This document shows, one piece after another, positions 16,533 through 37,486 of a stretch of 50,266 nucleotides of DNA. The notes under the pieces are model-generated. The model was not told the DNA's origin, ran no database searches, and saw only the letters and a program-made list of their open reading frames with translations. Each line of letters starts with the position of its first letter. The first letter of the stretch is position 1. Source of the stretch: Dehalococcoidia bacterium (lineage in GTDB: Bacteria > Chloroflexota > Dehalococcoidia > DSTF01 > RBG-16-68-14); contig JBAROU010000056.1 in NCBI GenBank assembly GCA_049642385.1, forward strand, positions 1 to 50,266, in the 5' to 3' direction. Both the position numbers and the translations under genes were made by a program.

Positions 16533-17833
16533 TGCTACGGCGTTCTAGCTGCGGTCGGGAAGTTCTTACGAAGCGCGTCGTAGCCGTTTCGCTCCTCGCG
16601 CTGTTCGCGGCCCTCGCCTGGGCCGCGCCGGGGGCTCGCGCTCAGACCGGCATCGACGTGCGTTCGAGCGACGCCACGAGCAACTTCCCGGACGGCTTCA
16701 CCTTCTCGCTCGAAGTCGCCGGCGCCAACATCGACGACGTCCGTCTCATCTACGAGATCGCCCCGGACGGCGTGCGCACCACCGCCGAGGCCGACTGCAC
16801 CGGCGCCAGCGCGATGAGCTGCACCTACAGTCTCGTCGCCAGCCGTACGAACGTCATTATCCCGGGCGCCGTAGCGACGTACTTTTGGCGCATCACCACC
16901 GGCGGCGAGACGACGGAGACCGACCCGCAGGTCGTCACGTACGAGGACAACCGCTTCGAGTGGCATACGATCAGCGACGGCAACCTTACGCTGTGGTGGT
17001 ACTCGGGCAGCGAATACCAGGCGAACGCGGTGCTCGCTGCCGGCCGTGAGAGCCTTGATGCGAACGCGGCGCTGCTGCAAACGCAGGTCGACATCCCGGT
17101 GAAGATCTTCTGGTACGCAAGCGCCGAAGACATGGCGCCTGCGATCCTGCCCAGCCAGGCTGCTGGTGTTGTCACCGCAGGCGAGGTCGTCTATTCCGAC
17201 ACGGCGATGGTCTCCGGCAGCGGCGCGGAGGACATCGCTCGTCACGAGATCGCCCACGTCGTCGTGCGCCAGGCGATCGGCCCGATCTACAGCGTGCCTG
17301 ACTGGCTGAACGAAGGGCTCGCCGTCTACTCCCAGTCGGCGCCATTCTCCGAACAGCAAGCGTCGTTGGATCAGGCGATCCAGTCCGGCGACGTGCTTTC
17401 GGTGCGCAGCCTCAGTTCGGCGAGCAGCGGCGCCGTCGCCAGCAAGGTGTCGCTGTTCTACGGGCAGTCGTACAGTCTGGTTGACTTCCTGATTAGCACC
17501 TACGGCAAAGAGAAGTTCGCTAAGCTCTTCAAGGCGTTCAGCCAGGGCGCAACGACTGCCGAGGCGCTCGAGCAGGCCTACGGGTTCGACCAGGACGGCC
17601 TAGAGAACGAATGGCGCGCCAGCGTCGGCCTGCCTCCGCGCGCAGCGCTCACGCCGGCTGCCGAGGGCTCGCCCACGGCCACCGCCAACCCCACGCCGAC
17701 GCCTAACGCCTCAACATCCAGCGACGACGGCGGCGCGCCTATCGCGCTCGTCATCGCAATTGTCGCGCTGGTCGTTGTGCTCGTGGGCGTCTTCGCCGCG
17801 ATCGGCGTGCTGCTGTCGCGCCGCTACCGCTAG
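16532..17833 (+). CDS. membrane-anchored zinc metallopeptidase, peptidase MA-like (HExxH ... E)
   Basis: Trimmed to MLRRSSCGREVLTKRVVAVSLLALFAALAWAAPGARAQ (signal peptide). Its ATG overlaps the prfB TAA (TAATG). HEIAHVVV...NEGLAVY motif, Pro/Thr linker, C-terminal TM plus SRRYR. Confidence 0.75.
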   Translation: MLRRSSCGREVLTKRVVAVSLLALFAALAWAAPGARAQTGIDVRSSDATSNFPDGFTFSLEVAGANIDDVRLIYEIAPDGVRTTAEADCTGASAMSCTYSLVASRTNVIIPGAVATYFWRITTGGETTETDPQVVTYEDNRFEWHTISDGNLTLWWYSGSEYQANAVLAAGRESLDANAALLQTQVDIPVKIFWYASAEDMAPAILPSQAAGVVTAGEVVYSDTAMVSGSGAEDIARHEIAHVVVRQAIGPIYSVPDWLNEGLAVYSQSAPFSEQQASLDQAIQSGDVLSVRSLSSASSGAVASKVSLFYGQSYSLVDFLISTYGKEKFAKLFKAFSQGATTAEALEQAYGFDQDGLENEWRASVGLPPRAALTPAAEGSPTATANPTPTPNASTSSDDGGAPIALVIAIVALVVVLVGVFAAIGVLLSRRYR

Positions 17834-19389
17834 CGGTTGGTGGACGTTGTCCCCTGGCCCAGCGAGGGGTTCTCGCGGCTGAGTTTCAGCTTCATCGCCC
17901 CGAAGTAGCCCGGCCGGAAGCCGTTCACGGCGAAGCTGCTGCGCGCGGCGTCCGCCGTATAGTAGATATGCGCGCCCTCCGATTCGAACCGCTGGAAGGC
18001 ATCGTACTCCAGCAGCCATGCGTACGTGATCGTTGGCAGGCCATCGCGGTCCAGCAGGTCCGCGCGTCCCTTGTCGGAGAGCTGGCTGATCGCCTCGTGG
18101 TCATCCTCCAGGATGCCGACCTTGAGGTCGTCGTAATACAGCATGACGAGCTCCGGGTAGATGAAGCCTGTGATCACCACCGCCGGCCGTTGCAGCTTGC
18201 CGGGTTTCGTCGCCACATCGTGCAGTTCGTCCGCGAAGTCCCTCTGGTTGCGCAGCGTCTCGACATCGGAGAGCAACATGCCCTTGCCGATGCGCGCGCT
18301 TGTGAACGTCTCGGCAGTGATGCCGAACGTATCGTCGGGCGACGTGATGTCGACGAAGCCGGCGAGCACGATCACCGCTAACACTGCGGCGAGCATTCCC
18401 CGTGTCAGGTAGCGCGAGAGCAGGAAGAAGCCGAACGGGAAGAGCGGGATCAGGTACGCGATCTCGTGCGGCAGCTGCGTGTACGACAGCATGAAGACGA
18501 CGACGACGGCGACCCACGTCAGCACGTGCGGGTCGCGTATCATATCGCCTGGCAGGTGGCGAATGCGCTGCCACGAAAGACCCAGCGCTCCCAGCACCGC
18601 CAGCGCCCCGACGATGCCCAGGCCGTCCTTCCCGACGCGCTTGATCACCTCCGCCAGCGGCACGCTCTGGTCGTAGAAGTTGAGGAAGTCGAAGCCATAG
18701 CGCATCAGCACCGGCGTATACGCGACGAATGCCGTGGCCAGTGCCGTCACCGCGAACGGGCGGATGTCCTTGCGCTGGTCCGTGCGCCAGAGCAGTAGCC
18801 CGAACGGGACCAGCATCCCGAGCGATGCGATCCGGAAGCCCGTCGCAACGCCCAGCACGATGCCTGCCAGCTGTGGCTGTCGGTGCAGCAGCGCCAGGTA
18901 GGCGCCCATGATGAACGTCAGCGTCCACATGTAATCCATGGTCATCACGCTGTTGATCCAGAGCAGCGGCGCAAACGCGAACGCGATGGTGAGCGCGCCT
19001 CGGTTCTCCAGGTCGAGCTTCTTCGCCAGCGACGCGAACAGGTAGATCCCAACGAGCGAGATGAGCACGGTGCTCAGGTTCGTCGCGATCCAGCCGCCTT
19101 TGATGAAGAGCGCCGTCACGAACTCGTGCAGAGGATAGCCGGGCAGTCGCGACGGATAGTAGTCGCCATGATCCCAGAGGTAGCGCGCCGTCAGCGCCAC
19201 GCGCCACGCATCCGGGTCAGTGCCGTAGCCCATGTTCAGCCACGGAACCCGCGAGACGATGTAGACGACGGCCAGCGCCGCGAACGTCGCCGGCTTCGTG
19301 AACTCGAGATCGATCGCCTTGTCGATCAGGCCTCGGCTGCGCGCGAGGAGGCCGTTCGATTCGCGGGTGAGCGTTTCCGTCGCTTCCAT
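17830..19389 (-). CDS. polytopic membrane protein, GT-C-fold glycosyltransferase-like (last gene of the inositol-lipid operon)
   Basis: ~10 predicted TM helices, an acidic first loop (GYGTDPDAWR) and a ~150-aa C-terminal soluble domain. Its start lies 1 nt after the upstream stop. Its stop overlaps the convergent peptidase stop (CTAG). Family assignment is by architecture only. Confidence 0.6.
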   Translation of the reverse strand: MEATETLTRESNGLLARSRGLIDKAIDLEFTKPATFAALAVVYIVSRVPWLNMGYGTDPDAWRVALTARYLWDHGDYYPSRLPGYPLHEFVTALFIKGGWIATNLSTVLISLVGIYLFASLAKKLDLENRGALTIAFAFAPLLWINSVMTMDYMWTLTFIMGAYLALLHRQPQLAGIVLGVATGFRIASLGMLVPFGLLLWRTDQRKDIRPFAVTALATAFVAYTPVLMRYGFDFLNFYDQSVPLAEVIKRVGKDGLGIVGALAVLGALGLSWQRIRHLPGDMIRDPHVLTWVAVVVVFMLSYTQLPHEIAYLIPLFPFGFFLLSRYLTRGMLAAVLAVIVLAGFVDITSPDDTFGITAETFTSARIGKGMLLSDVETLRNQRDFADELHDVATKPGKLQRPAVVITGFIYPELVMLYYDDLKVGILEDDHEAISQLSDKGRADLLDRDGLPTITYAWLLEYDAFQRFESEGAHIYYTADAARSSFAVNGFRPGYFGAMKLKLSRENPSLGQGTTSTNR

Positions 19390-19390
19390 G

Positions 19391-20152
19391 CTAGCGGGGC
19401 AGCACCAGACCGCCGGACGGCGGCGCCCCGCCTCCGCTCGTAAGCTCCGACGTCGCGCCGCCCTGCGTCTCGCTGGCGGTCATGCCGTGGTCGGCGGCCT
19501 GCACCGCGAGCTCGGCCAGCGCCGCCTCGTCGATCGCGCCCGGTATCGCCGAGCGCTCATTGATCACGGTGAACGGCACCGCGCGCACGCCGAGCTGCTG
19601 CGCCAGCCGCGGGAACTCGTTGATCTCCACCGCTGCGGCGCGCACATGTGCGCTCGCCAGCGCCAGCCGGTAGGCCGCGCGCACGACGCCCGGGCAGTGG
19701 GGGCAGGTGGGCGTCACGTACACGACGATCGACGTTTTGTCGCGCAGCTTCTTGAGCTGCTTCGTCGCCCCTGGCCCCACCGTGACCTTTTGCTTCGATG
19801 CCTCGATCATCGTCTCGATGAAGTTCGGGAACTCGTTGCCGCCGGGAATGCCGAAGAAGCGGAGCGGCCGGTTCATCGGTCCGCGCAGGACGATGCCCGG
19901 CACCTTGTCGATGCCCAGCTTCGCTGCTTCTTCGGGCGTGTCGGCGAACTCGTGCACCGTGAGCGATACCTTGTCACTCAGCGACGCGATCTCTTCCAGC
20001 ATCTTGTGCACATCTTCGCAGTGGACGCATTCCTCGCGGCCGGGTACGTAGAGCTTGGAGGCGCGTTGGGTGAAGTAATCGAGCTTCACCTTGCCCTCCA
20101 GCTCCTTGCCGAAGCGTTCGCGGACGTAGTCCTGCTCGCGCAGGGGGATCAC
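19391..20152 (-). CDS. two-domain thioredoxin-fold protein disulfide oxidoreductase (glutaredoxin-like, PDO type)
   Basis: Only the C-terminal 253 codons of track ORF 19391..21091 are credible. The GTG at 20152 overlaps the upstream stop (GTGA). Two CxxC sites (CVHC and CPHC) sit in consecutive Trx-like units. Confidence 0.8.
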   Translation of the reverse strand: MIPLREQDYVRERFGKELEGKVKLDYFTQRASKLYVPGREECVHCEDVHKMLEEIASLSDKVSLTVHEFADTPEEAAKLGIDKVPGIVLRGPMNRPLRFFGIPGGNEFPNFIETMIEASKQKVTVGPGATKQLKKLRDKTSIVVYVTPTCPHCPGVVRAAYRLALASAHVRAAAVEINEFPRLAQQLGVRAVPFTVINERSAIPGAIDEAALAELAVQAADHGMTASETQGGATSELTSGGGAPPSGGLVLPR

Positions 20153-20775
20153 GTGCGGTCCTCCTGACCGGCGGTCGCCGGCTCTGCGTTGAAACGGTGC
20201 CAGACGACGTAGAGCCGCTGGAGCGCCGTCGCGTTGGCCATCACGGCCAGAATCCAGAGCGCGATCCGCACCTGACCTATGATAAGCCCGCCGCCCATAA
20301 GAAGCACCCTCTCGGCGCGTGTGAATAGCCCGTCGCGCAACTCCATGCCGTTCGCCTGGGCCCGCGCCCGCACGTAGCTCACCATGATCGAGCCGACCAG
20401 TGCCGCGAAGCAGAGCCCGATCTCCTCGCGCTCGCCGCGCCCGGAGTAGTAAAAGACCAAGCCGCCCAGCACCGCCGCCTCGGAAAGCCGATCCAGCACC
20501 GAGTCGAACACCGCGCCGAACGGCGTCGCTCGGCCCGTCGCCCGCGCCAGTGCGCCATCGAGCAGGTCGACGGCGCTGAACGCCAGCATGAGGATGCCGG
20601 CGATCAGGAACTCGCCGCGCGCGGCCAGCACGCCGGCGCTCACGTTGCCCGCGAAGCCGAGCGCGCTCAAATGATTCGGCGTCGCGCCCGTGCGCGCGAT
20701 TACCGAGACGATCGGATCGGTGATGCGGCGCGGGACCGAGTGCGGCAGCAGCGTGAACGAACGCGGGCGCACCAC
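20149..20775 (-). CDS. CDP-alcohol phosphatidyltransferase, phosphatidylinositol-phosphate synthase-like
   Basis: Signature D-x2-DG-x2-AR-x8-G-x3-D-x3-D read as DLLDGALARATGRATPFGAVFDSVLDRLSE. ~6 TM helices. The context with ino1 and pimA-like genes suggests PIP synthase. Confidence 0.85.
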   Translation of the reverse strand: MVRPRSFTLLPHSVPRRITDPIVSVIARTGATPNHLSALGFAGNVSAGVLAARGEFLIAGILMLAFSAVDLLDGALARATGRATPFGAVFDSVLDRLSEAAVLGGLVFYYSGRGEREEIGLCFAALVGSIMVSYVRARAQANGMELRDGLFTRAERVLLMGGGLIIGQVRIALWILAVMANATALQRLYVVWHRFNAEPATAGQEDRT

Positions 20776-21929
20776 TACGCCCCTGTCGCTCGCACCGGCT
20801 GCGAACGCCCGTCCGGCTGTTGCCGCTCATGCAGCAACCGTTCGTAGTAAGACAACACCTGTTGCGACACGCGCAGCCAGCTGAACTCCTGCGCGCGTTG
20901 GTGGCCGCGCTCGCCCATCGTCCGGCGCAGGTCCGCGTCGCCCAGCAGCACCAGTAGCGCTTCGGCGATGCCCTTGGCGTCGCCCGGCAGCGCGAACAGC
21001 CCTTCGACGCTGTGCGTGAACACGCTCGCGTATCCGTCGATGTTGCTCGCGACGATGGGCAGCCCGGCCGCCATCGCTTCCAGCAGAACAATGCCCTGGC
21101 TCTCGAAGCCCGTCGCTGGTGCGCAGAAGACGTCCGCTGTGTGGTGGTAGCGTGGCAGCTCCTCGGCCGACACGTAGCTGACGAAGGCGACGTCGGGCAG
21201 GCCCATCGACCGCACCTTCCGCTTCTGCGGTTCGAACGTACCCGCGCCGACGACGATCAGCCTCGTGTTCGGCTGGCGCTGTTTGACGATGGCAAACGCC
21301 TTGATCAGGTAATCCAGGCCCTTTCGCTTCTCCGGCCGCCCGACGAACAGGATGTTCAACATCTTGTCGCTGAATTCAGGGATCGGCGCGGCCTTCGCCG
21401 CGAAGCGCTCGACGTCTACGCCGTTCGGGATGATGTTGTAGTAACCGGGGAAGTACTCCTCCACGAAGCGCGCCGCCGAGGGCGAGACGGCGATCTTACC
21501 GTCGAGCCGCCGGCCCCAGCGACGGATATGGCGCTTGCCCCACGTGTAGAAGAACTGCTTCTTGTCGCGCGTTGCGTGATACGTGCCGACATTCACCGCC
21601 TCCGAGTAGCGCAGGAAGTGGATCGGCAGCACCGGCATGAACGGTTCGTGCACGTGCACCACGTCGAACTGCTCCTCGGCCAGCACGCGGCGCACCGCCG
21701 GTCCCAGCGTGAGCGAGAGCGAGATGCGCGCCAGCGATCCGCTCGCCGGTACACTCACCGGTCGCTTGCCGATGGTCACCACGCCTTCCTCGTCGACCGC
21801 GCGCGAGGACGGCGCCATAATCTGCACCAGGTGCCCCCGCTGGACGAACTGCTCGCGTAGGTGGGCGCAGTGGCTGTTCACGCCGCCGGGCACCGTCCAG
21901 TCGTACGGCGAAACGAGCGCAATCTTCAC
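20775..21929 (-). CDS. pimA: GT4 glycosyltransferase, PimA-like phosphatidylinositol alpha-mannosyltransferase
   Basis: MKIALVSPYDWTVPGGVNSHCAHLREQF...VHVHEP... and ESQGIVLLEAMAAGLPIVAS (E-x7-E region). Colinear by eye with mycobacterial PimA (MRIGMVCPYSFDVPGGVQSH...). Confidence 0.8.
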   Translation of the reverse strand: MKIALVSPYDWTVPGGVNSHCAHLREQFVQRGHLVQIMAPSSRAVDEEGVVTIGKRPVSVPASGSLARISLSLTLGPAVRRVLAEEQFDVVHVHEPFMPVLPIHFLRYSEAVNVGTYHATRDKKQFFYTWGKRHIRRWGRRLDGKIAVSPSAARFVEEYFPGYYNIIPNGVDVERFAAKAAPIPEFSDKMLNILFVGRPEKRKGLDYLIKAFAIVKQRQPNTRLIVVGAGTFEPQKRKVRSMGLPDVAFVSYVSAEELPRYHHTADVFCAPATGFESQGIVLLEAMAAGLPIVASNIDGYASVFTHSVEGLFALPGDAKGIAEALLVLLGDADLRRTMGERGHQRAQEFSWLRVSQQVLSYYERLLHERQQPDGRSQPVRATGA

Positions 21930-22663
21930 GGACGCACCCGCTGGATGAAGCTACGGATCGTTGGTACCCAGCCCATCTTGCGCGGCGTCGCCATCAGGCC
22001 GCGCCACTGTTGCCGGACCACCTGCACCGGCCCCAGCTCGGTCAACGTTGGGTAACGCCCGTTGCCCACGCCCGTCGTCCGCGACTCGATGGCGTGGCGC
22101 AGCTCAGCCTCGCTTTTGCCCTCGAACGTGGTGTAGGCGCAGCCGACCGCCTGCAGAAAGTGGGCGTCGCTGCCGCCCACTTCGGCGAAGTGGTAGCGCT
22201 CGCGGTTCAGTCGCCGCGCCGTCTCCTGGCCGATGCGCGGCTTCCCACGCGCCAGCTCGATGCCGTCGAACGTGGCGCCATCGCGCATGACGCGGTCGAT
22301 CGTGCGCTGGGTGATGCTGCGTGTGAGCCAGCACATCGGGTGTGGGATCAGGCACAGACCACCCTGCCGGTGCACCGCTTCCAGCGTGGGCATCAGCGGC
22401 TCCAGGCTCGGTACTGGTTCTTCGATGTACAGCGCCAGCAGGTGCCCCTCCAGCGCGGTCACTTCTTCACCCACGATGAGCTCGAAGCGATAGCCCGCGC
22501 GCGCCCACGCCTCGCGCGCGGCGAGCGCCGGCCGCAGATCGTCGTGCTCCGTGATCGCGATGACCGAGAGATCGGTGTGTTCCTCAACGTAGCCAAGCAG
22601 CTCAGGGATCTCCGCCATCCCGTCTCCGAGCGCCGTGTGGATGTGTAAATCGGCTTTGCCCAC
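21926..22663 (-). CDS. PHP-domain metal-dependent phosphoesterase
   Basis: MGKADLHIHTALGDGM...IAITEHDD...IPHP...GGSDAH, the His/Asp ligand pattern of the PHP family. GTG start. Its stop overlaps the pimA-like start (GTGA). Confidence 0.8.
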   Translation of the reverse strand: MGKADLHIHTALGDGMAEIPELLGYVEEHTDLSVIAITEHDDLRPALAAREAWARAGYRFELIVGEEVTALEGHLLALYIEEPVPSLEPLMPTLEAVHRQGGLCLIPHPMCWLTRSITQRTIDRVMRDGATFDGIELARGKPRIGQETARRLNRERYHFAEVGGSDAHFLQAVGCAYTTFEGKSEAELRHAIESRTTGVGNGRYPTLTELGPVQVVRQQWRGLMATPRKMGWVPTIRSFIQRVRP

Positions 22664-22675
22664 GCGCGTTCGCCG

Positions 22676-25003
22676 CTATTGTATCGCACCAGGAGAGTCT
22701 GCTGGCTCGCCGTCCAGCGTCTCGTCGTAGGGCCTGAGCCACAGGATACGGTAGGTCGCCACGTACACGTCGCGGCCGGGGAACGCCGCGATGATCTCGT
22801 CGCGCAGCTCCGGTACGTTGCGCGCGAAGACGACGTCGCCATCCAGCGTCGGCGAGTTGAGCCAGAAGACGCTCCCATAGCAGGACCACTTCTCGCCCAG
22901 CCCGCAGTCCTCGACGAGGACGAGCGCGTTGTGCAGGTCGGCGTCGTGCGTCAGCGCGACCAGGCGGTTGTCCACGCCGAACAGCCCGTGGAGGTCCTGC
23001 GCCCGCGCGGGCGTGAAGGGCACGTTCCAGTTCGCCTGATGGCCCAGCAGCCACCCGTACAGACTGCCGCCCACCAGAGCGAGCACCAGCGCGTACGTGA
23101 CCAGCAGGCCCGCCCACAGCGGCGGGCCGCGCTCGTCGCGCAGCGTCATGCGGCGCAGCCACGCCGCCCCGCCTGCGATCAGCTCTGCCGCGCGGTCCGC
23201 GCCGCGAGCGGTGAGCAGGATCAGGAACGGCGTCGCTTCGTACCAGTAACGCGGGCCGTGCATCACGCCTTCGCCCCACCAGAACGTCGGTGCCGCCATC
23301 ACGAAGACGGCGCAGGTGCCCAGGAACCAGTCGTACCGGTTGCGCGTGAGCGATACGAACGGGATCGCCACGAACAGCCAGCCGATGTACTGTGGCCAGC
23401 CGTTCAGCACTAGCAGCAGCAACTTCAGCTGCGTCTCCTCGTTTTGCAGGCCGTTCGCCACGCTGTGCCGGCCGCCGAAGCCAATCGATTCGTCGGCTGC
23501 CGTGCCGCCATACCCGCTCGAGAACGCATGGCCGGTCGTGCCATAGTTGTAGAGCCAGTAGGCCAGGAGCATCACCAGTCCGCCCGCCACGAACGCCCCA
23601 AGTTGCTGCGCCCGTTCTAGGCGTCGCTCCTGGGGTATCAGGCCGCTGAGCAGGTACGCGCCGAACGGAGGCATCAGCGCGACGGCCGTGAGCGGTCGGG
23701 TGTTGAACAGCAGCCCGAAGAAGAGCCCCGCGAGCAGCCCGTACAGCACCGGCCGCCGATCGACGAAGGCGAGGAACACGAGCGAAACGAGCAAGTAGAA
23801 CGCGGCCGTGCTATGCGACATAAAGTTCGTCGTCGTCATCAGGAAGAACGGCGATGTGGCCAGCAGCAGCGCCGCCAGCAGGGCGACGCGGACGCTATAC
23901 AGTCGCCGCGCGACAGCGAAGATCAGCACCACGCTTGCCGCGCCGACGAGCGGTGGAATCAGCCACACTGCGCCAAGCTTGACGCCGATCGCAAGCAGCA
24001 ACGGATGGCCGAACGGATAGATGCTTGCCCACTTGCCGTCGTTGACCGTGATGAAGTTCTGGGCGAAGAACTGGAACGTGCTGGGCACCTGCGGTGGTGG
24101 TGCCGAGAAATGCCCGGACGCCAACAGCTTCGCCTGGAAGATGTACGCGTCGCCGTCAGGCACATGCGGCATCCGCGTGACGTACGAAAACATGATGAAC
24201 ATCGCGATGCCGAACGCGCCGGCAGCCAGCGCGGCAATGCCCGCCAACGATAGATGGCGCGGCAGTCGCCCCCGCACACGCGCGGGCAGCTCGGGCGGGC
24301 GGACGAACGCCAGCCCGGCGACGACGATCGTTCCCGCCGCCAGCAGCAGCAGCATGATCGGGTAGGTGTGGAGCGCCATGCCGAGCAGCGCGCGCATCGA
24401 CTCACGTTTCGACAGCTCTACCTTGCCGCCTTCGAGGGCCGTGTCTTGCGTGATGAAGCTCTGACTGGGGTGCCGGAAGTGGTAGGCGACGCCTGCCCCG
24501 CGCTCTTCCGCGCGCACAGCGACGATTGCGCCCACGATGTTCCGGTACCGCACGTCGACCGCGTAGTCCCGCCACGAGGCGTCGCTGAGTGCGATCACCC
24601 CCGCCCCGCCGAGGACGCCGTGGTCGATGCTGAACGTGCCGTCGAGCACCTGCCACGCAGGCCCGGGCCCGGACGAGAAGTCGTCTTCGAAGAGCAGCTC
24701 GCCCGTGGTCAGGTTCGTCACGCGCACGCTGTCGATGCCGCGGGGCGTGGGCAGGCTGGGGATGTTGTCGGTGTCCTCCAGCGTGAGGATCACCCCGCCG
24801 CCGTCCGGCGCATCGAACGTTCCGCGTAGCGCGCGCACGCCATCGACGTACGCGGTGAAGTCGTCGCCGCGCGCTTCTATGCGCACATCAATTGACTGAC
24901 CGCCTCGGCTCCAGAAGTATGCCAGGATCAGCAGGAGATTGAGGACGAGGAGCGTAACGAGGAACGCCCCGACGCGTCGAGGGGGCAGGCGAACGTGGCT
25001 CAC
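22676..25003 (-). CDS. large membrane protein: N-terminal TM plus extracytoplasmic beta-sandwich-like region fused to a GT-C (ArnT/PMT-like) glycosyltransferase core
   Basis: 775 aa. After ~200 extracytoplasmic residues come >=12 TM helices with an acidic first-loop motif (HVPDGDAYIF), typical of polyprenyl-phosphate-sugar-dependent GT-C enzymes. Confidence 0.65.
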   Translation of the reverse strand: MSHVRLPPRRVGAFLVTLLVLNLLLILAYFWSRGGQSIDVRIEARGDDFTAYVDGVRALRGTFDAPDGGGVILTLEDTDNIPSLPTPRGIDSVRVTNLTTGELLFEDDFSSGPGPAWQVLDGTFSIDHGVLGGAGVIALSDASWRDYAVDVRYRNIVGAIVAVRAEERGAGVAYHFRHPSQSFITQDTALEGGKVELSKRESMRALLGMALHTYPIMLLLLAAGTIVVAGLAFVRPPELPARVRGRLPRHLSLAGIAALAAGAFGIAMFIMFSYVTRMPHVPDGDAYIFQAKLLASGHFSAPPPQVPSTFQFFAQNFITVNDGKWASIYPFGHPLLLAIGVKLGAVWLIPPLVGAASVVLIFAVARRLYSVRVALLAALLLATSPFFLMTTTNFMSHSTAAFYLLVSLVFLAFVDRRPVLYGLLAGLFFGLLFNTRPLTAVALMPPFGAYLLSGLIPQERRLERAQQLGAFVAGGLVMLLAYWLYNYGTTGHAFSSGYGGTAADESIGFGGRHSVANGLQNEETQLKLLLLVLNGWPQYIGWLFVAIPFVSLTRNRYDWFLGTCAVFVMAAPTFWWGEGVMHGPRYWYEATPFLILLTARGADRAAELIAGGAAWLRRMTLRDERGPPLWAGLLVTYALVLALVGGSLYGWLLGHQANWNVPFTPARAQDLHGLFGVDNRLVALTHDADLHNALVLVEDCGLGEKWSCYGSVFWLNSPTLDGDVVFARNVPELRDEIIAAFPGRDVYVATYRILWLRPYDETLDGEPADSPGAIQ

Positions 25004-25027
25004 GCCAATTTGACGCCTTGCTTGCCG

Positions 25028-25945
25028 CTACCGCAGCGCACTGGGGGCGGCCGCAGTCTCTTCGTCATCGCGCTGCCAGATCGCTTCCAGCACTGCCCAC
25101 TGGCCCGGGTCGGCGCGCAGGTGCCCTTCGAACAGGGCGAGTAGCCGTCGCGCGTTCACGAGCACGTCGTTCTCGAAGTCGCCTGTCCGCACCAGGTCGA
25201 GCGGCGGCCCGATCCGCGCCCGAAATCGATAGCCGTCGATGCGCCAGGCCCACGTCGGTAGTAGGTCCGCGCCGGTGCGCAGCGCCAGCTCGATTGCGCC
25301 CAGAGGGATACGCGCATCGGCGCCGCAGAACTGCATCGGCACGCCGGAGCCGCTCACATCGCGGTCGAGCAATATCGCGACGATGCCGCCATTCCGCAAG
25401 CGCCGGATCGCCTCCTTCACCGCGCCGAAGCTGACCGTCCGAAACTCATGGCCGTGCTCCGATCGCAGCCAGTGGGTGAAGTCAGAGAGCGCCTGCGGCT
25501 GGAGTGGCTCCGTGAGGGCGTAGACATAAATGCCCTCCGCCGCCAGGCCCTGCGCCGCCATCTCCGGGTTGCCGAAGTGCGCGCTCACGATGATCGCGCC
25601 TCGTCCGGCGTCTCGCGCCGCTTGGAGATACGCCACGCCCTCAAGATCGATCTTCTCACGCCGGAAGCGCTGGAGGTCCATGCGGGGGAGGTGGACCAGG
25701 TCGGCGTAGTAGCGCGTGGCGTTCCGGAAGACCTCCCGAGCCGCCCGGCGTACCTCCTGCTCCGATGCCTCCGGCCCCATCACCTGACGCATATTCGCGA
25801 TGACGGCCTCGTGGGCGTTCCGGCGGAAGAGGTACGCGCCGTCGCCCACCACATGCGCGATGCCGTACAGCGCGCGCAGCGGCAGCCTGCCCAGCACAAT
25901 GTACGCCAGGCGCAGCACGTAGTACTTCCACATTTTGTTTCTCAT
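25028..25945 (-). CDS. lipid A biosynthesis (LpxL/HtrB)-family acyltransferase, PatA-like, copy 1
   Basis: Trimmed to MRNKMWKYYVLRL (GGAGG upstream). Its ATG overlaps the upstream stop (ATGA). Active-site-type HFGNPE motif. Confidence 0.8.
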   Translation of the reverse strand: MRNKMWKYYVLRLAYIVLGRLPLRALYGIAHVVGDGAYLFRRNAHEAVIANMRQVMGPEASEQEVRRAAREVFRNATRYYADLVHLPRMDLQRFRREKIDLEGVAYLQAARDAGRGAIIVSAHFGNPEMAAQGLAAEGIYVYALTEPLQPQALSDFTHWLRSEHGHEFRTVSFGAVKEAIRRLRNGGIVAILLDRDVSGSGVPMQFCGADARIPLGAIELALRTGADLLPTWAWRIDGYRFRARIGPPLDLVRTGDFENDVLVNARRLLALFEGHLRADPGQWAVLEAIWQRDDEETAAAPSALR

Positions 25946-26850
25946 CGCGCCTCCGCGACGGCCGGCTGCTGCGTCCGATCGGCCGCGTTTGGCCACATCG
26001 GTCGGAAGATGTACCACTGCTCCGGGTGTCGTCGCACATGCTCCTCGAACACGAGCAAGATCTGGCGTGTGAGCGCCAGCACGTCGCGCTCCTCATCGCC
26101 CGTCCGCTCGTATCGCACCGAACGAATGTCGACGATAGGCCGGATCAGCGTATCTCGCTCGGGCCCGCGCAGCACCACCGCCGGCATCACGTGCGCTCCG
26201 GTGCGCAACGCGATGCGTGCCGGAGCGGATGATACCGCTGCTGGCGCGCCCAGGAACTCGACCATGATCGTCTCTTGCGGCGCCGGCACATCGACGAGCA
26301 TCGCCACCATTTCGCCCCGCTTGAGCGCCCGAAAGAGGCTCAGCCCAACCTTTTCCCGCGGGATCACGTGTATGCCCAGCTTCTCCCGCGAGCCGTGGAC
26401 CAGCCCATTCATTGGCTCGTAGCCGAACGAATCGGCGACGGCGTTGATCGGATAATCATACGCCGCCAGCACGGCCCCGCCCAGGTCCCAGATACCGAAG
26501 TGCATCGTCACGATAACGACGCCCTTGCCGGCATCCCGAACCTCGTCCAAGTCGGTCCATTGCGTAAAGACCAAGCGCTTGCGCACCTCGTCTCGGGTCA
26601 TCACAGGGAAGTGGATGAAATCGATGACGAACTTGCCGAAGTTGCGGAACGCGCGCCGCGCCATGGCGTCCACCTCGCGCCGGTCGTTGCTGCCCAGCAC
26701 CCAGGCGAGGTTCCTGTTCAGCGCCTTACGCTGACGATGGAAGAAGTGATAGCAGACCTCCGCCACCGCCGCAGCGACTCGATAGCCGAGCCACAGGGGT
26801 AGGGGCCTGGTGAGCAGGATCGTCAGCCGGAAGAGCCAGTAGACGACCAC
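25942..26850 (-). CDS. lipid A biosynthesis (LpxL/HtrB)-family acyltransferase, PatA-like, copy 2
   Basis: MVVYWLFRLTILLTRPLP..., HFGIWDL motif. The start lies 4 nt after the ino1 stop. Confidence 0.8.
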   Translation of the reverse strand: MVVYWLFRLTILLTRPLPLWLGYRVAAAVAEVCYHFFHRQRKALNRNLAWVLGSNDRREVDAMARRAFRNFGKFVIDFIHFPVMTRDEVRKRLVFTQWTDLDEVRDAGKGVVIVTMHFGIWDLGGAVLAAYDYPINAVADSFGYEPMNGLVHGSREKLGIHVIPREKVGLSLFRALKRGEMVAMLVDVPAPQETIMVEFLGAPAAVSSAPARIALRTGAHVMPAVVLRGPERDTLIRPIVDIRSVRYERTGDEERDVLALTRQILLVFEEHVRRHPEQWYIFRPMWPNAADRTQQPAVAEAR

Positions 26851-26854
26851 ACGC

Positions 26855-28189
26855 TCACGCTCCTGCGATGAACTCCTCCACCATATCGCGCGCCTCGTCG
26901 TCAGTGTACTGCGTAGGCGGCGACTTCATAAAGTACGCGGAGGGCGCTGACAGCGCGCCGGAGATGCCACGGTCTAACGCCAGCTTGCAGCAGCGTATCG
27001 CGTCAATCACGACACCGGCCGAGTTCGGGCTGTCCCACACCTCGAGCTTCAGCTCCACGTTCAGCGGCACGTTCCCGAAGGTGGTGCCTTCCATCCGGAT
27101 GTAGGCCCACTTGCGGTCGTCCAGCCACGGCACGTGGTCGCTCGGGCCGATGTGGATCGCGTCGCCCGGCATCTCGTAGTCGATCTGCGAGGCGACGGCG
27201 TTGGTCTTGGAGATCTTCTTAGAGATCAGTCGCTCTCGTTCGAGCATGTTCAGAAAGTCTGTATTGCCCCCGAAGTTCAACTGGTACGTGCGGTCAAGTC
27301 GCACGCCGCGGTCGCGGAAGAGGCGCGTCAAGACCCGATGGATAATCGTTGAGCCCACCTGCGATTTGATGTCGTCGCCGATGATGGGCAGCTTATGGTC
27401 GCGGAAGCGCTGCTCCCAGTACTCCTCGCGGGCGATGAAGACCGGGATGCAGTTGACAAAGGCGCAGCCTGCGGCCAGCACCTGCTCCACGTACCATCTC
27501 GTCGCGGCCTCCGAGCCGACCGGCAGGTAGTTGACCACCACGTCGGCCTTCGTCTCCTTCAGGATGCTGACGATGTCCGCGGTGGAGCCGGGCGCCTTCT
27601 GCACCACGTCTTCCAGATACTTGCCCACGCCGTCGTGGGTCATCCCCCGCGAGACGCGGACGCCGGTGCGGGGCACTTCGGTGAACTGGAAGGTGTTGTT
27701 CGGCGGGGCGAAGATCGCCTCTGAGATGTCCTTGCCGACCTTGTTCGCATCGATATCGAACGCGGCGACGAAATTGACGTCGCTGATGTGGTAGCCGCCC
27801 AGCGTCGGGTGCATCAGCCCCGGGATCGTGTTCTCGTCGCCTGCGTCTCGATAGAAATGCACGCCCTGGACCAGCGACGAGGCGCAGTTGCCCAGACCGA
27901 CGATGGCGACGTTGATCGGGCGGCGCTTGCGCCCGTTCGACTGGGGACGTGGCGTCGGCGCCGCGCGCGTCTCGCCGTTCGAGACGCCGGTAAACAGCTC
28001 GTCCTCGGCCATGCCGAGCGTCTCGCAAACGGCGTCGACGAAGCGCCGGCTCGGCACGCGCGCGCCGGATTTAATCTTTGACAAGTACGCTTCGCTGAAG
28101 CGGTAGCCACGGTGCTGCAACTCGTTTAGCAGCCAGCGCTGCTTGTGGCCCTGCGCAGCGAGAACGTCGAACAGCTGCTGAGTACTCAT
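26855..28189 (-). CDS. ino1: myo-inositol-1-phosphate synthase with N-terminal Cro/C1-type HTH domain fusion
   Basis: Trimmed to [10 protein letters not shown] (GGAGGTG SD 3 nt upstream). Residues 1-65 look like an XRE-type HTH ([36 protein letters not shown]). The rest is MIPS ([42 protein letters not shown]). Confidence 0.88.
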
Positions 28190-28327
28190 ACCCACCTCCG
28201 GCGTCAAGATTCCTGAACGGATGTCCGGCGTGTTAAGTTGACGCCTGGTGGGAGTGTAGTACCAACAAGTGAGATCCGTCAAGAGCCGAGGGTTGGACAG
28301 CGACAAGGAGGCGCTGGTAAGCTTGTC

Positions 28328-28372
28328 AAGATTAGAAAAGTAGAGAAGGGGTGGCGCATTCGCCACCCCTTC
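28328..28372 (-). terminator. rho-independent terminator of the small zinc-ribbon gene
   Basis: On the minus strand: GAAGGGGTGGCG-aatg-CGCCACCCCTTC (12-bp stem, 28345-28372) followed by TCTACTTTTCTAATCTT. Confidence 0.75.
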
Positions 28373-28673: not shown

Positions 28674-28701
28674 ATCTTAGCCGAATCTAGGCGGGTGTCA
28701 A
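28674..28701 (-). promoter_or_regulatory. candidate promoter TTGACA-N16-TAAGAT for the zinc-ribbon gene
   Basis: On the minus strand the -35 is at 28701..28696 and the -10 at 28679..28674. It is flanked by two exact AGCCGAATCTA copies (plus-strand 28679-28689 and 28712-28722). Confidence 0.45.
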
Positions 28702-34815: not shown

Positions 34816-36198
34816 CTAATGCCCAACGCCGCTGACGCCCTCCGGCACCTCGGTGTACTTGCGCAGCACCGCCATCACCTCGCGGTCGATGGCGTCCAGC
34901 CCCGCCTGCGAGCGCGCCTCGAAGCGCAGGGTGAGGTTCGGCCCCGTGTTCGACGCGCGGATCAGCGCCCAGCCGTCGTCGAACGTCGCGCGGATGCCGT
35001 CGATCTCCAGCGCATCGTGGCTCTTGCGTAGCTCGTTCGCGACCGCGACCACCACGTCCCACTTCTTGTCGTCGGCGCACGGCACGCGCATCTCCGGGCT
35101 GGTGAACCAGCGCGGCACGCCCTCCAGATGCGCCGAGAACGGCTTGTCGCTCTGCGAAAGGAACGTGAGCAGCTTGATCGCGGCGAAGAGCGCGTCGTCC
35201 GCGTAGAAGTTCTCCTGGAAGAAGATGTGACCGCTCGCCTCGCCCGCCAGCGGCGCCTGCTCCTCTCGCATCTTCAGCTTGATCAGCGAATGGCCCGTCT
35301 TCCCGACGATCGGTTCGCCGCCGTGCGCGCGAATGTCGTCCATCACCGGCTGCGACGTTTTCACGTCCATGATGATCTTGGCGCCCGGCTTCTCCGCCAG
35401 CAGCCCGCGCGCGAGCAGCATCAGAATGTAGTCGGCATCGTGGCGCTCGCCCCGCTCGTCGATAACGCCCAGCCGGTCGCCGTCGCCGTCGAACGCCAGG
35501 CCGATGTCCGCGCCGCTCTCGCGTACGGTCTGCTGGAGACAGACGACGTTCTCCGGCATCTGCGGGTCGGGCAGGTGGTTGGGGAATGTGGGGTCGAGGT
35601 CCGTGTGCACCTCGACCAGCTCGCAGCCGATCTCGCGCAGCAGCGGCGGCGCGTATAGCCCCGCGACGCCGTTGCCCGTGCACACCGCGACGCGGAAGCT
35701 GCGCTTGAGCTGCGCCGCCTTCTTCAGCCGCGCGAAGTACTCCTGCTTCACCTCCCGCTCGACGACCTTCCCCTCGCCGCTGCGGAAGTTGCGCGAGTCG
35801 ATGATCGCCTTGAGCTTCATCAGCTCGTCGCCTGCGACGGGCCGCGCGCCCTCACCCGCGAACTTGAAGCCGTTCTCATCGACCGGGTTGTGGCTGCCCG
35901 TCACGTTCACGCCGCCCGTCAAACCCCACTGGCCCGTCGCGAAGTAGAGCGCCGGCGACGTGCTCAGCCCGATGTCGTACACCGTCGCCCCGGTCGAGAC
36001 CAGGCCGCGCATCAGCGCCGCCTTCAGCTCAACGCCCGATTCGCGAGCGTCCCGGCCGACGGCGATCTCGGTCACGCCCTCGCCGGCGATGTACGTCCCG
36101 AAGGCGCGCCCGAGCGCCTCGCCCACCTCGGGCGTGATGCTGGTGTCGACTTTGCCGCGCACGTCGTACGCGCGACAGATCGTTGGGTCGATGGCCAA
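34816..36198 (-). CDS. phosphomannomutase/phosphoglucomutase
   Basis: Active-site loop VTGSHNPVDENGFK, metal loop AFDGDGDRLGV and GEASGH sugar loop. Start set to TTG 36198 (AAGGAG 6 nt upstream). The track's GTG 36219 is the alternative. Confidence 0.9.
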   Translation of the reverse strand: MAIDPTICRAYDVRGKVDTSITPEVGEALGRAFGTYIAGEGVTEIAVGRDARESGVELKAALMRGLVSTGATVYDIGLSTSPALYFATGQWGLTGGVNVTGSHNPVDENGFKFAGEGARPVAGDELMKLKAIIDSRNFRSGEGKVVEREVKQEYFARLKKAAQLKRSFRVAVCTGNGVAGLYAPPLLREIGCELVEVHTDLDPTFPNHLPDPQMPENVVCLQQTVRESGADIGLAFDGDGDRLGVIDERGERHDADYILMLLARGLLAEKPGAKIIMDVKTSQPVMDDIRAHGGEPIVGKTGHSLIKLKMREEQAPLAGEASGHIFFQENFYADDALFAAIKLLTFLSQSDKPFSAHLEGVPRWFTSPEMRVPCADDKKWDVVVAVANELRKSHDALEIDGIRATFDDGWALIRASNTGPNLTLRFEARSQAGLDAIDREVMAVLRKYTEVPEGVSGVGH

Positions 36199-36288
36199 GG
36201 TTCGCTCCTTTGAAGACACTGCCGCGGACTTCAGTCCGCAGTGTAAGAGACGTCGCTAACGCCGTCGATTATACTACCACCGACTGCT

Positions 36289-37194
36289 ATGACCGAACGT
36301 GAGCGCATCGGCTTCATCGGCCTGGGCATCATGGGGCGACCGATGGCGCGCAACCTCATACGCGCCGGTTACGAGCTCACCGTCTCCAATCGGAGTCGCC
36401 CCGGCATCGACGCGCTTGTCGCTGATGGCGCGAAGGAGGCTGGCTCGCCGCGCGCCGTCGCCGAGCGGTCGGACGTCGTCGTAACTATCGTTGGCGACGC
36501 GCCGGACGTCGAGCAGGTCGCCCTGGGCGATGATGGCATTATCGTCGGCGGCCGCGACAGCCTCGTCCACATCGATATGACCACCCAGTCGCCCGCGGTC
36601 ACGCGCGCCATCGCTGCCCGCTACGCCGAGGTGGGCGTCGACATGCTCGATGCGCCGGTGAGCGGTGGTGAGCAGGGCGCCATCGACGGTACGCTCAGCA
36701 TCATGGTCGGCGGCAAACGGGAGGTCTTCGAGCGCTGCCGACCGCTCTTCGAAGCGATGGGCAAGACCATCGTCCACTGCGGCCCGAACGGCGCCGGCCA
36801 GGTTGTCAAGCTCTGCAACCAGGTCATCGTTGGGCTGAACAACCTCGCCATGAGCGAGGCGCTCATCCTCGCCGCGAAGGCTGGCGTCGCCCCGGCGACG
36901 ATGATCGAGGCGGTGAAGGCGGGCGCGGCGTCGTCGTGGGCGCTCCACAACCTTGCGCCGAAAGTGCTGGCCGGCGACTTCCGGCCCGGGTTCAAGATCT
37001 GGCACCAGCAGAAGGACCTCCGCCTCGCGCTTGAGCTCGCCCACGACGGTCACACGCCGCTGCCGGGCACCGCGCTTGTCCACCAGCTCTTCGCTGCGCT
37101 CGAAGCGGAGGGAATGGGCGAGCAGGGCACCCAGGCGCTCGTAAAGGCGCTGGAGAAGCTCGCGAACACTTCGGTGGTAGATGATGGCTCGTAG
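36289..37194 (+). CDS. NAD(P)-dependent 3-hydroxyisobutyrate / 2-hydroxy-3-oxopropionate reductase family dehydrogenase
   Basis: IGFIGLGIMGRPMARNL Rossmann motif, DAPVSGG, and GAGQVVKLCNQ. Confidence 0.88.
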   Translation: MTERERIGFIGLGIMGRPMARNLIRAGYELTVSNRSRPGIDALVADGAKEAGSPRAVAERSDVVVTIVGDAPDVEQVALGDDGIIVGGRDSLVHIDMTTQSPAVTRAIAARYAEVGVDMLDAPVSGGEQGAIDGTLSIMVGGKREVFERCRPLFEAMGKTIVHCGPNGAGQVVKLCNQVIVGLNNLAMSEALILAAKAGVAPATMIEAVKAGAASSWALHNLAPKVLAGDFRPGFKIWHQQKDLRLALELAHDGHTPLPGTALVHQLFAALEAEGMGEQGTQALVKALEKLANTSVVDDGS

Positions 37195-37216
37195 GCGAGG
37201 GTCTTCAGACCCTCGC
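37195..37216 (+). terminator. hairpin directly after the dehydrogenase stop (no U tract)
   Basis: GCGAGGGTCT-tc-AGACCCTCGC starts 1 nt after TAG 37192-37194. Confidence 0.3.
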
Positions 37217-37486
37217 GAGTCTAAGGGCCCTGACCTGTAAGATCGATTGTCGATCTCAACCGTTCTCGACGCTCCCGACATGGACGCGGCGGTGGAGATT
37301 TCCAAGTCCTGGCCCGGCCTGCCGGTCGCGCTCGAGCTGCGGCCAGTCATGAGCGGCTGAGATCCTGCCCGTCCTCGTCGCCCGTATGCGCCGTGGCTAA
37401 CCTCTCGTAGGCGCGATTCGCGAGTCGCCCTACCGTGCACTCGCGACCCGAGCGCTCGTTCATCATCCTGAGCCCGTCGAAGGACG

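Follow-up and report, generated by a model that had tools for sequence, protein, structure and literature searches.

We describe a nine-gene operon on the minus strand (17830-28189) of contig JBAROU010000056.1 from a Dehalococcoidia bacterium (GCA_049642385.1). The window, i.e. the whole stretch of DNA analysed (positions 1-50,266), is a single contig of a 2.6-Mb metagenome-assembled genome (MAG) that is 90% complete. It is likely that the operon is the Chloroflexota version of a pathway for phosphatidylinositol (PI) and acylated PI glycosides, expressed from its own promoter after a terminator. The genes encode a myo-inositol-3-phosphate synthase (MIPS, gene ino1), two PatA-like acyltransferases (AT1 and AT2), a PHP-family phosphoesterase, a PimA-like GT4 glycosyltransferase, a CDP-alcohol phosphatidyltransferase resembling phosphatidylinositol-phosphate (PIP) synthase (PIPS), a protein disulfide oxidoreductase (PDO) and two GT-C membrane glycosyltransferases of 775 and 519 aa. 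They are labelled g1 to g9 in Table 1.

An earlier note on this DNA had described nine open reading frames (ORFs), separated by gaps of at most 24 nt or by overlapping stop and start codons, and had proposed a family for each. All nine are present with this spacing, and the family assignments are borne out by Pfam, NCBIfam, solved-structure and fold searches.

The nine proteins were compared by tblastn with 20 loci of the same family or order and with 83 further loci (103 in total). The order MIPS-AT1-AT2-PHP-GT4-PIPS-PDO-GT-C(519) recurs in these loci. Across the order, eight genes are conserved and one, g4, is a local insertion. Among the members that the earlier note regarded as non-canonical, PHP, PDO and the 519-aa GT-C are conserved, whereas the 775-aa GT-C is not. 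Two families differ from the common arrangement. In family f5 PIPS-PDO-GT-C does not follow GT4 and the AT-AT-PHP-GT4 block is separated from it, and in family f3 MIPS-AT-AT is missing before PHP; AT2-PHP-GT4 is nearly universal. Because the same order recurs in the 20 and the 83 loci, the arrangement is, judged on this comparison, not a product of chance. The 80 closest named loci are all from MAGs labelled Chloroflexota or 'Dehalococcoidia', sampled from soil, groundwater and sediment, including one of the window's own family, RBG_16_68_14.

Upstream of the operon, on the same strand, are nusA, infB, rbfA and truB. A terminator-like hairpin closes a small DUF5679 gene and sets the operon apart from these genes, and a promoter-like site lies downstream of the hairpin. 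Given the terminator, the promoter-like site and the ino1 start behind them, the nine genes look like a transcription unit of their own; it is the spacing of the genes that points to a single transcript. Inside the operon, terminator-like matches are weak, and shuffled sequence yields at least as many. The Rfam scan of the window identified two tRNAs only, with no riboswitch or leader upstream of ino1.

PIP-synthase-like transferase, Ino1 and operon layout

The best NCBIfam model for g7 is PIPSynth (NF045883), with a score of 141.3 bits and an equivalog cut-off of 170. The archaetidylinositol-phosphate synthase (AIPS) model follows with 135 bits and the BT1523 model with 109, far ahead of pgsA (26) and pssA (24). 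The earlier note had called the transferase PIP-synthase-like and would have given up this reading for a PgsA- or PssA-like protein; with 141 against 26 and 24 bits, the resemblance to PIP synthase holds. The solved relatives are the PIPS of M. tuberculosis, M. kansasii and Renibacterium, and then AF2299 and DIPPS, with neither PgsA nor PssA among them. A role of g7 as housekeeping PgsA was considered and is ruled out by the model scores and the PDB matches.

The segment 'VDLLDGALARATGRATPFGAVFDSVLDR' of g7 contains the CDP-alcohol motif D-x2-D-G-x2-A-R...G-x3-D-x3-D and aligns to the motif of the M. tuberculosis PIPS. Basic residues in 'SYVRARA', 'TRAER' and 'QRL' also align with those of the M. 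tuberculosis enzyme. From these similarities, and with ino1 in the same operon, we infer that g7 would make PIP from inositol-phosphate and CDP-diacylglycerol (CDP-DAG). PI synthesis via PIP is established in Actinobacteria, Bacteroides and archaea.

In none of the 41 genomes of the order (G000-G040), closed genomes included, does a PgsA score above the cut-off. The closed genomes G021, G027 and G028 each have a single PF01066 match, the operon PIPS. The genome of the window has two CDP-alcohol transferases in all, g7 and a PIPS/AIPS/DIPPS-like protein encoded on contig C95. According to these searches, the operon PIPS looks like the only or main CDP-alcohol phosphatidyltransferase of the order and part of a core, not an accessory, pathway. 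With no PgsA in the order, and no CDP-alcohol transferase besides the operon PIPS in the closed genomes, the principal phospholipids derived from CDP-DAG are probably inositol lipids. In a wider sample of Chloroflexota, PIPS-like genes are found in 195 of 201 genomes. Among the polar lipids of cultured Chloroflexota, PI has been reported as a major one (PMC12453558). A literature search on the polar lipids of Tepidiforma returned nothing.

The second transferase gene (C95:6944-8273, minus strand, also locus L002) overlaps the gene of a 240-aa nucleotidyltransferase. The pair matches the two halves of the bifunctional IPCT/DIPPS enzyme, with 117 and 98 bits, and is possibly a di-myo-inositol-phosphate or CDP-inositol pathway in split form, which Ino1 would also supply.

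The Ino1 protein (g1) matches PF01658 (Inos-1-P_synth) with 123 bits and TIGR03450 with 537 bits over the full model length (cut-off 638), and is encoded by a single-copy gene. Its N-terminal helix-turn-helix (HTH) region gives a weak match to HTH_31 (21.8 bits). Relatives align to g1 from residue 1-5, therefore the HTH-Ino1 fusion is conserved. The gene starts with an ATG at 28189, preceded by a GGAGGTG ribosome-binding site. A longer frame, from 28366, was rejected; it runs through the 12-bp terminator hairpin and has no ribosome-binding site.

A palindrome, GTAA(A/C/G)G-N4-CTT(T/C/G)AC, is located upstream of ino1 in the relatives, often twice and around the promoter (loci L028-L030, L032, L035-L038, L040, L048, L050, L053 and L027). 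It has 19 matches in 27 upstream regions (140 nt each, 3.8 kb), compared with 5 in the other ~966 kb of the same loci. In the relatives the conserved palindrome flanks a homologous TTGAC/TACACT promoter pair. The window itself has only degenerate versions around 28200-28250 (GGCGTCAACTTAAC; CAGGAATCTTGACG), and an 8-nt inverted repeat, GGCGTCAA/TTGACGCC, is also present upstream of ino1. We regard the palindrome as a candidate operator to which the HTH of the Ino1 fusion may bind.

Table 1. Genes of the operon, the junctions between them, and further features of the operon and its upstream flank.
Feature	Position	Strand	Remark
g1, myo-inositol-3-phosphate synthase (Ino1) with N-terminal XRE-type HTH of ~70 aa	26855..28189	-	
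ino1/AT1 junction			4-nt gap
g2, PatA/LpxL-family acyltransferase AT1, 302 aa	25942..26850	-	H-x4-D motif (MHFGIWD)
AT1/AT2 junction			ATGA overlap
g3, PatA-like acyltransferase AT2, 305 aa	25028..25945	-	H-x4-E motif (AHFGNPE)
AT2/g4 junction			24-nt gap
g4, 775-aa GT-C glycosyltransferase	22676..25003	-	PMT_2 49.7 bits
g4/PHP junction			12-nt gap
g5, PHP-family metal-dependent phosphoesterase, 245 aa	21926..22663	-	candidate PIP phosphatase
PHP/GT4 junction			GTGA overlap
g6, PimA-like GT4 glycosyltransferase, 384 aa	20775..21929	-	GT4 domains
GT4/PIPS junction			1-nt overlap
g7, PIP-synthase-like CDP-alcohol phosphatidyltransferase (PIPS), 208 aa	20149..20775	-	CDP-OH_P_transf
PIPS/PDO junction			GTGA overlap
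g8, PDO-type protein disulfide oxidoreductase	19391..20152	-	two thioredoxin folds (CVHC, CPHC)
PDO/g9 junction			1-nt gap
g9, 519-aa GT-C-fold membrane glycosyltransferase	17830..19389	-	C-terminal alpha/beta domain
Last 13 codons of g4, stop and spacer to PHP	22664..22717	-	former AT2 3' end (...DGEPADSPGAIQ, then stop)
Promoter-like site upstream of ino1	28253..28282	-	TTGACG-18-TACACT, consensus scan
Intrinsic-terminator-like hairpin	28345..28372	-	12-bp stem, 9 G-C pairs, T-rich tail
DUF5679 zinc-ribbon gene, 47 aa	28397-28540	-	CxxC...CxxC; between truB and operon

At the downstream end, the 3' end of g9 overlaps a convergent Peptidase_MA_2 gene by 4 nt; this gene and the neighbouring prfB are also conserved in relatives. 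On the upstream side, the DUF5679 gene has a strong ribosome-binding site, a promoter-like site of its own (28674-28701) and, as its terminator, the hairpin listed in Table 1.

Acyltransferases, glycosyltransferases and the predicted pathway

Both acyltransferases match Lip_A_acyltrans (PF03279), AT1 with 152 bits and AT2 with 112. PatA (5f2t) is the closest solved relative of AT1 (E 8e-16, followed by LpxM with 4e-10) and the sole solved relative found for AT2 (E 1e-22). The best NCBIfam model for AT2 is the phosphatidylinositol mannoside (PIM) acyltransferase PRK07920; its equivalog cut-off of 209 bits is reached neither by AT2 (143.5) nor by AT1 (133.8). HFGIWD in AT1 and HFGNPE in AT2 align to HSGNWD in PatA, i.e. 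both proteins have the H-x4-(D/E) motif with the catalytic histidine. The two are ~30% identical to each other. On these scores and motifs AT1 and AT2 are PatA-like, not demonstrated PatA equivalogs. In the loci L115-L117 (8100-10004) a single 634-aa protein comprises AT1 and AT2, and the place of ino1 upstream is taken by an NTP-transferase, a 457-aa protein without a Pfam match and an SDR.

The GT4 protein (g6) aligns with M. smegmatis PimA (2gej/4n9w) over residues 1-365, i.e. full length, with an E-value of 1e-55. The other solved matches are Tll1590 (1.5e-19), PimB' (3e-18) and MshA (1e-15), so the comparison of PimA with PimB that the earlier note had proposed comes out for PimA. The segments 'GFESQGIVLLEAMAAG' and 'FVGRPEKRKG' align to the E-x7-E and GR..RKG nucleotide-sugar segments of PimA, and the genome has no other full-length PimA-like gene. 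An MshA-type chemistry, in which GlcNAc is transferred to inositol-phosphate before a phosphatase acts, was rejected for g6, the match to PimA being 40 orders of magnitude better.

The 519-aa GT-C (g9) matches GT87 weakly (23.1 bits, E 7e-5, below the cut-off of 25). For its AlphaFold2 (AF2) model, with a pLDDT of 70, the top Foldseek matches are all GT-C enzymes and include ALG9, STT3, PIG-M, PIG-U, ALG6, ALG12 and PimE; PimE, in 15th place, has TM-scores of 0.40 (query) and 0.52 (target). The first loop contains the invariant D58-P-D60, and the C-terminal domain searched alone has no match in Pfam. As far as the models go, with their moderate confidence (pLDDT 62 for g4 and 70 for g9), both g4 and g9 appear to have a GT-C fold with a conserved acidic residue.

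It could be argued that the GT4, the acyltransferases and the GT-C enzymes serve another product, a glycolipid or lipoglycan not built on PI (such as a glycosyl-diacylglycerol or a protein or S-layer glycan), and that their genes only happen to lie beside those for PI. The donor and acceptor specificities of GT4 and GT-C enzymes are not readable from sequence, the gene blocks are split in f5 and incomplete in f3, and g4 is itself an example of an unrelated GT-C gene landing in the operon. Nevertheless, we consider a separate glycolipid very unlikely, with ino1 at the head of the same operon and PatA as the best match of both acyltransferases. The GT4 also matches PimA end to end, ~36 orders of magnitude better than any other solved GT4, and keeps the P-Y-x-x-x-V-P-GGV, GR..RKG and E-x7-E segments.

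In the proposed PI-glycoside pathway, the catalytic steps, the sugar and the acylation sites are all predictions. Ino1 (g1) would convert glucose-6-phosphate to inositol-3-phosphate, which the PIP synthase (g7) would join with CDP-DAG to give PIP. The PHP protein (g5) would then take off the phosphate to give PI, a step suggested by gene context only. On the cytoplasmic face, the PimA-like GT4 (g6) would put a hexose on the inositol, the sugar being probably mannose (from GDP-mannose), and g2 and g3 would add one or two acyl chains. Finally, the 519-aa GT-C (g9) would extend the glycan on the outer face, using a polyprenyl-phosphate sugar. The genome has at least five GT2 genes similar to polyprenyl-phosphate-hexose synthases, which makes lipid-linked donors for the GT-C enzymes plausible.

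The earlier note had also placed a phosphomannomutase near the operon. A PGM/PMM-family gene does exist at 34816-36219, with nusA-infB-rbfA-truB between it and the operon, but the two have no meaningful linkage. A 388-aa ORF without a Pfam or NCBIfam match (36274-37440, minus strand) adjoins it.

The PDO (g8) matches TIGR02187 with 195.9 bits (cut-off 185). It is a single-copy gene that follows PIPS in most related loci, and no signal peptide was noted in its N-terminal sequence. We regard it as a conserved passenger of the operon.

The PHP phosphoesterase as candidate PIP phosphatase

The g5 protein matches PHP_C with 43.8 bits, above the cut-off, and the PHP N-terminus. All 13 orthologues compared share the metal ligands H7, H9, D14, H40, E67, H74, H108, D166 and H168. 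Conservation extends to a C-terminal segment, TPR..GW.PT..SF, which could be a membrane-association element. The homologue search returned close orthologues only, and the solved relatives, PHP phosphoesterases and RNase AM, are distant.

PHP adjoins GT4 in essentially all related loci. High-scoring orthologues are found in 145 of the 201 Chloroflexota genomes. Outside the order, in at least 37 genomes from 14 families, the coordinates place PHP no more than ~4 kb away from PIPS. In a control scan PHP_C was present in four archaea and in none of Corynebacterium glutamicum, E. coli and Bacteroides; since it is missing from Corynebacterium glutamicum, PHP is not the actinobacterial enzyme. In our literature search the only bacterial PIP phosphatase found was the PgpA-like BT_1525 of Bacteroides (PMC9246714). 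The genome has no PgpA-family match and g5 is unrelated in sequence to BT_1525, so PHP would be a non-homologous replacement if it is the PIP phosphatase. On the gene context we lean slightly towards this role.

A different solution would be an operon for PI alone, as bulk phospholipid, in which PHP is a phosphoesterase that acts on nucleotides or RNA, or else a regulatory hydrolase, and PIP is dephosphorylated by an unlinked enzyme, for example the IMPase-family protein of contig C112 or another PHP_C paralogue. The closest solved relatives of PHP, RNase AM and 3',5'-bisphosphate nucleotidase-type enzymes, would fit such a role, in a match limited to the N-terminal third. Dehalococcoidales-like genomes have a PIPS-like gene without an operon-type PHP. 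The mycobacterial pgsA1-patA-pimA operon is flanked by hydrolases (Nudix, HIT) that are not pathway steps, which also counts for a PI-only operon. However, in almost every related locus PHP is placed between AT2 and GT4 with codons that overlap or nearly so. This position, the proximity to PIPS in 14 further families, the conserved TPR..GW.PT..SF segment and a genome in which no PgpA-type PIP phosphatase was found make the PI-only solution unlikely.

Several points weigh against the PI-glycoside pathway and against PHP as its phosphatase. In the same class, 20 small-genome members have a PIPS-like gene and no PHP orthologue, and many other Chloroflexota, from several families, have a lower-scoring PHP that is unlinked to PIPS; a coupling of the two genes is therefore not universal. 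The single IMPase-family gene (C112) and the three other PHP_C proteins of the genome are alternative phosphatase candidates. The PIPSynth, MIPS and PatA models all score below the NCBIfam equivalog cut-offs, for which reason these assignments are given as 'like' and not as proven equivalogs. The GT-C assignment of g9 is weak (GT87 23 bits; TM-scores 0.33-0.52), and the PDO has no obvious role in lipid synthesis. Genes could be missing from a MAG that is 90% complete, although the absence of PgsA also holds in the closed relatives.

A bolder version of the PI-glycoside pathway is put forward only tentatively, as less likely than not. In this version acylated glycosyl-PI lipids are the principal CDP-DAG-derived membrane phospholipids of the uncultured order, which would have no phosphatidylglycerol (PG) pathway, and PHP is a PIP phosphatase non-homologous to the PgpA type. 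The second PatA would be the inositol-ring acyltransferase, and HTH-Ino1 would repress its own gene by means of GTAAAG-N4-CTTTAC.

Insertion of g4 and comparison with known systems

The 775-aa GT-C had been counted among the extra members of the operon; it is not a conserved one, as g4 is absent from all 103 related clusters according to tblastn. In the AF2 model (pLDDT 62) the protein has an N-terminal transmembrane helix, a GT-C multi-helix core and a small C-terminal alpha/beta domain. The extracytoplasmic beta-sandwich that was described earlier matches an 11-strand beta-sandwich of the model, at ~residues 37-177. Asp283, in 'HVPDxxAYIFQAK', is invariant. The Foldseek matches are AglB/PglB/STT3, ALG9 and ArnT, and for the N-terminal domain jelly-roll lectins and glucanases; in Pfam this domain alone gives a faint hint of a 3-keto-disaccharide hydrolase (E 0.14).

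The g4 family is patchy in the order, being present in 20 of the 41 genomes, often in multiple copies, and the best relative of g4 has 55% identity. Paralogues in the same genome are found on contigs C184, C70 and C13. The closest of them (C184:10162-13318, 51% identity) adjoins a GT4 gene, and the family may normally work with a GT4 partner of its own elsewhere.

In the relatives AT2 ends with GAVQ and a stop, and PHP starts after ~12 nt. The end of g4 with its spacer to the GTG start of PHP (22664-22717) is identical at 42 of 54 positions to this AT2-end-to-PHP junction in relative L035, while the present AT2 end in the window is a second, more diverged copy of the AT2 tail. The homologues of g4 that were read, from five relatives, do not end like g4; they run on into a C-terminal extension of ~150-170 aa. 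Because g4 has an AT2-like tail and lacks the extension, it is, as the sequences indicate, a C-terminally truncated paralogue that recombined into the last AT2 codons in this lineage. On the same grounds, the insertion is seen to have duplicated the AT2/PHP junction and kept the translational signals on both sides. The base composition is not anomalous. The inserted enzyme may be responsible for one more decoration, specific to this lineage, or its acceptor may be unrelated.

In L119-L123 the C-terminal extension, lost from g4, consists of a Pro/Thr-rich linker and a conserved Cys-containing domain of ~110 aa with the pattern RDEQR..DL..IA.AL..Y....G.YP...G.QS.C.Y...DAGC....

The closest known system is the early PIM pathway of mycobacteria and corynebacteria (Ino1, PgsA1 Rv2612c, PatA Rv2611c, PimA Rv2610c, PimE), of which the same four enzyme families are found here. 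In each of the four the best solved match is mycobacterial. PIPS, acyltransferase and GT4 are clustered in both systems, and both have a GT-C enzyme available for periplasmic extension. The gene order differs from the mycobacterial one. The operon includes an HTH-fused ino1 and two PatA paralogues (fused in some relatives), PHP and PDO are conserved members and the GT-C is encoded in the operon. Nudix and HIT neighbours are missing, and so is PgsA in the organism. We know of no gene assigned to the acyltransferase for the inositol of PIM in mycobacteria.

The Bacteroides thetaiotaomicron cluster BT_1522-BT_1526 has MIPS, PIP synthase and a PIP phosphatase of its own, which make PI in two steps via PIP (Heaver et al. 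2022, PMC9246714). The operon likewise brings MIPS, PIP synthase and a candidate phosphatase together, with PHP in place of the PgpA-like BT_1525. Bacteroides goes on to inositol sphingolipids and not to PimA/PatA-type products, and g7 scores 109 bits on the BT1523 model versus 141 on the actinobacterial-type model.

In glycosylphosphatidylinositol (GPI) anchor synthesis, a GT4 acting on PI, an acylation and a GT-C mannosylation are the work of PIG-A, PIG-W and PIG-M, and the pathway proposed here has the same logic. The best fold matches of g9 are the GT-C enzymes of eukaryotic and archaeal GPI-anchor and dolichol-phosphate-mannose pathways (PIG-M, ALG9, ALG12, PIG-U), at only 12-14% identity and TM-scores of 0.33-0.43. 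Unlike in GPI systems, the cluster has no deacetylase or transamidase, and among solved structures the GT4 is PimA-like rather than PIG-A-like.

Published work that characterises this operon did not turn up in our literature search; on a bacterial PIP phosphatase or a PI operon in Chloroflexota it gave only the Bacteroides work and chemotaxonomic reports of PI. What is specific to the window is the insertion of g4, together with evidence for PIPS as the sole CDP-alcohol transferase of the order. The insertion is a clean example of a glycolipid operon that gained a glycosyltransferase at the end of a gene with translational coupling kept. The operon itself is a compact, conserved set that places a candidate PIP phosphatase and a candidate inositol acyltransferase beside their presumed partners. 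The order is widespread in soil and groundwater and apparently has no PG synthase; its membrane may centre on inositol lipids, and such membranes would bear on the reading of environmental intact-polar-lipid data.

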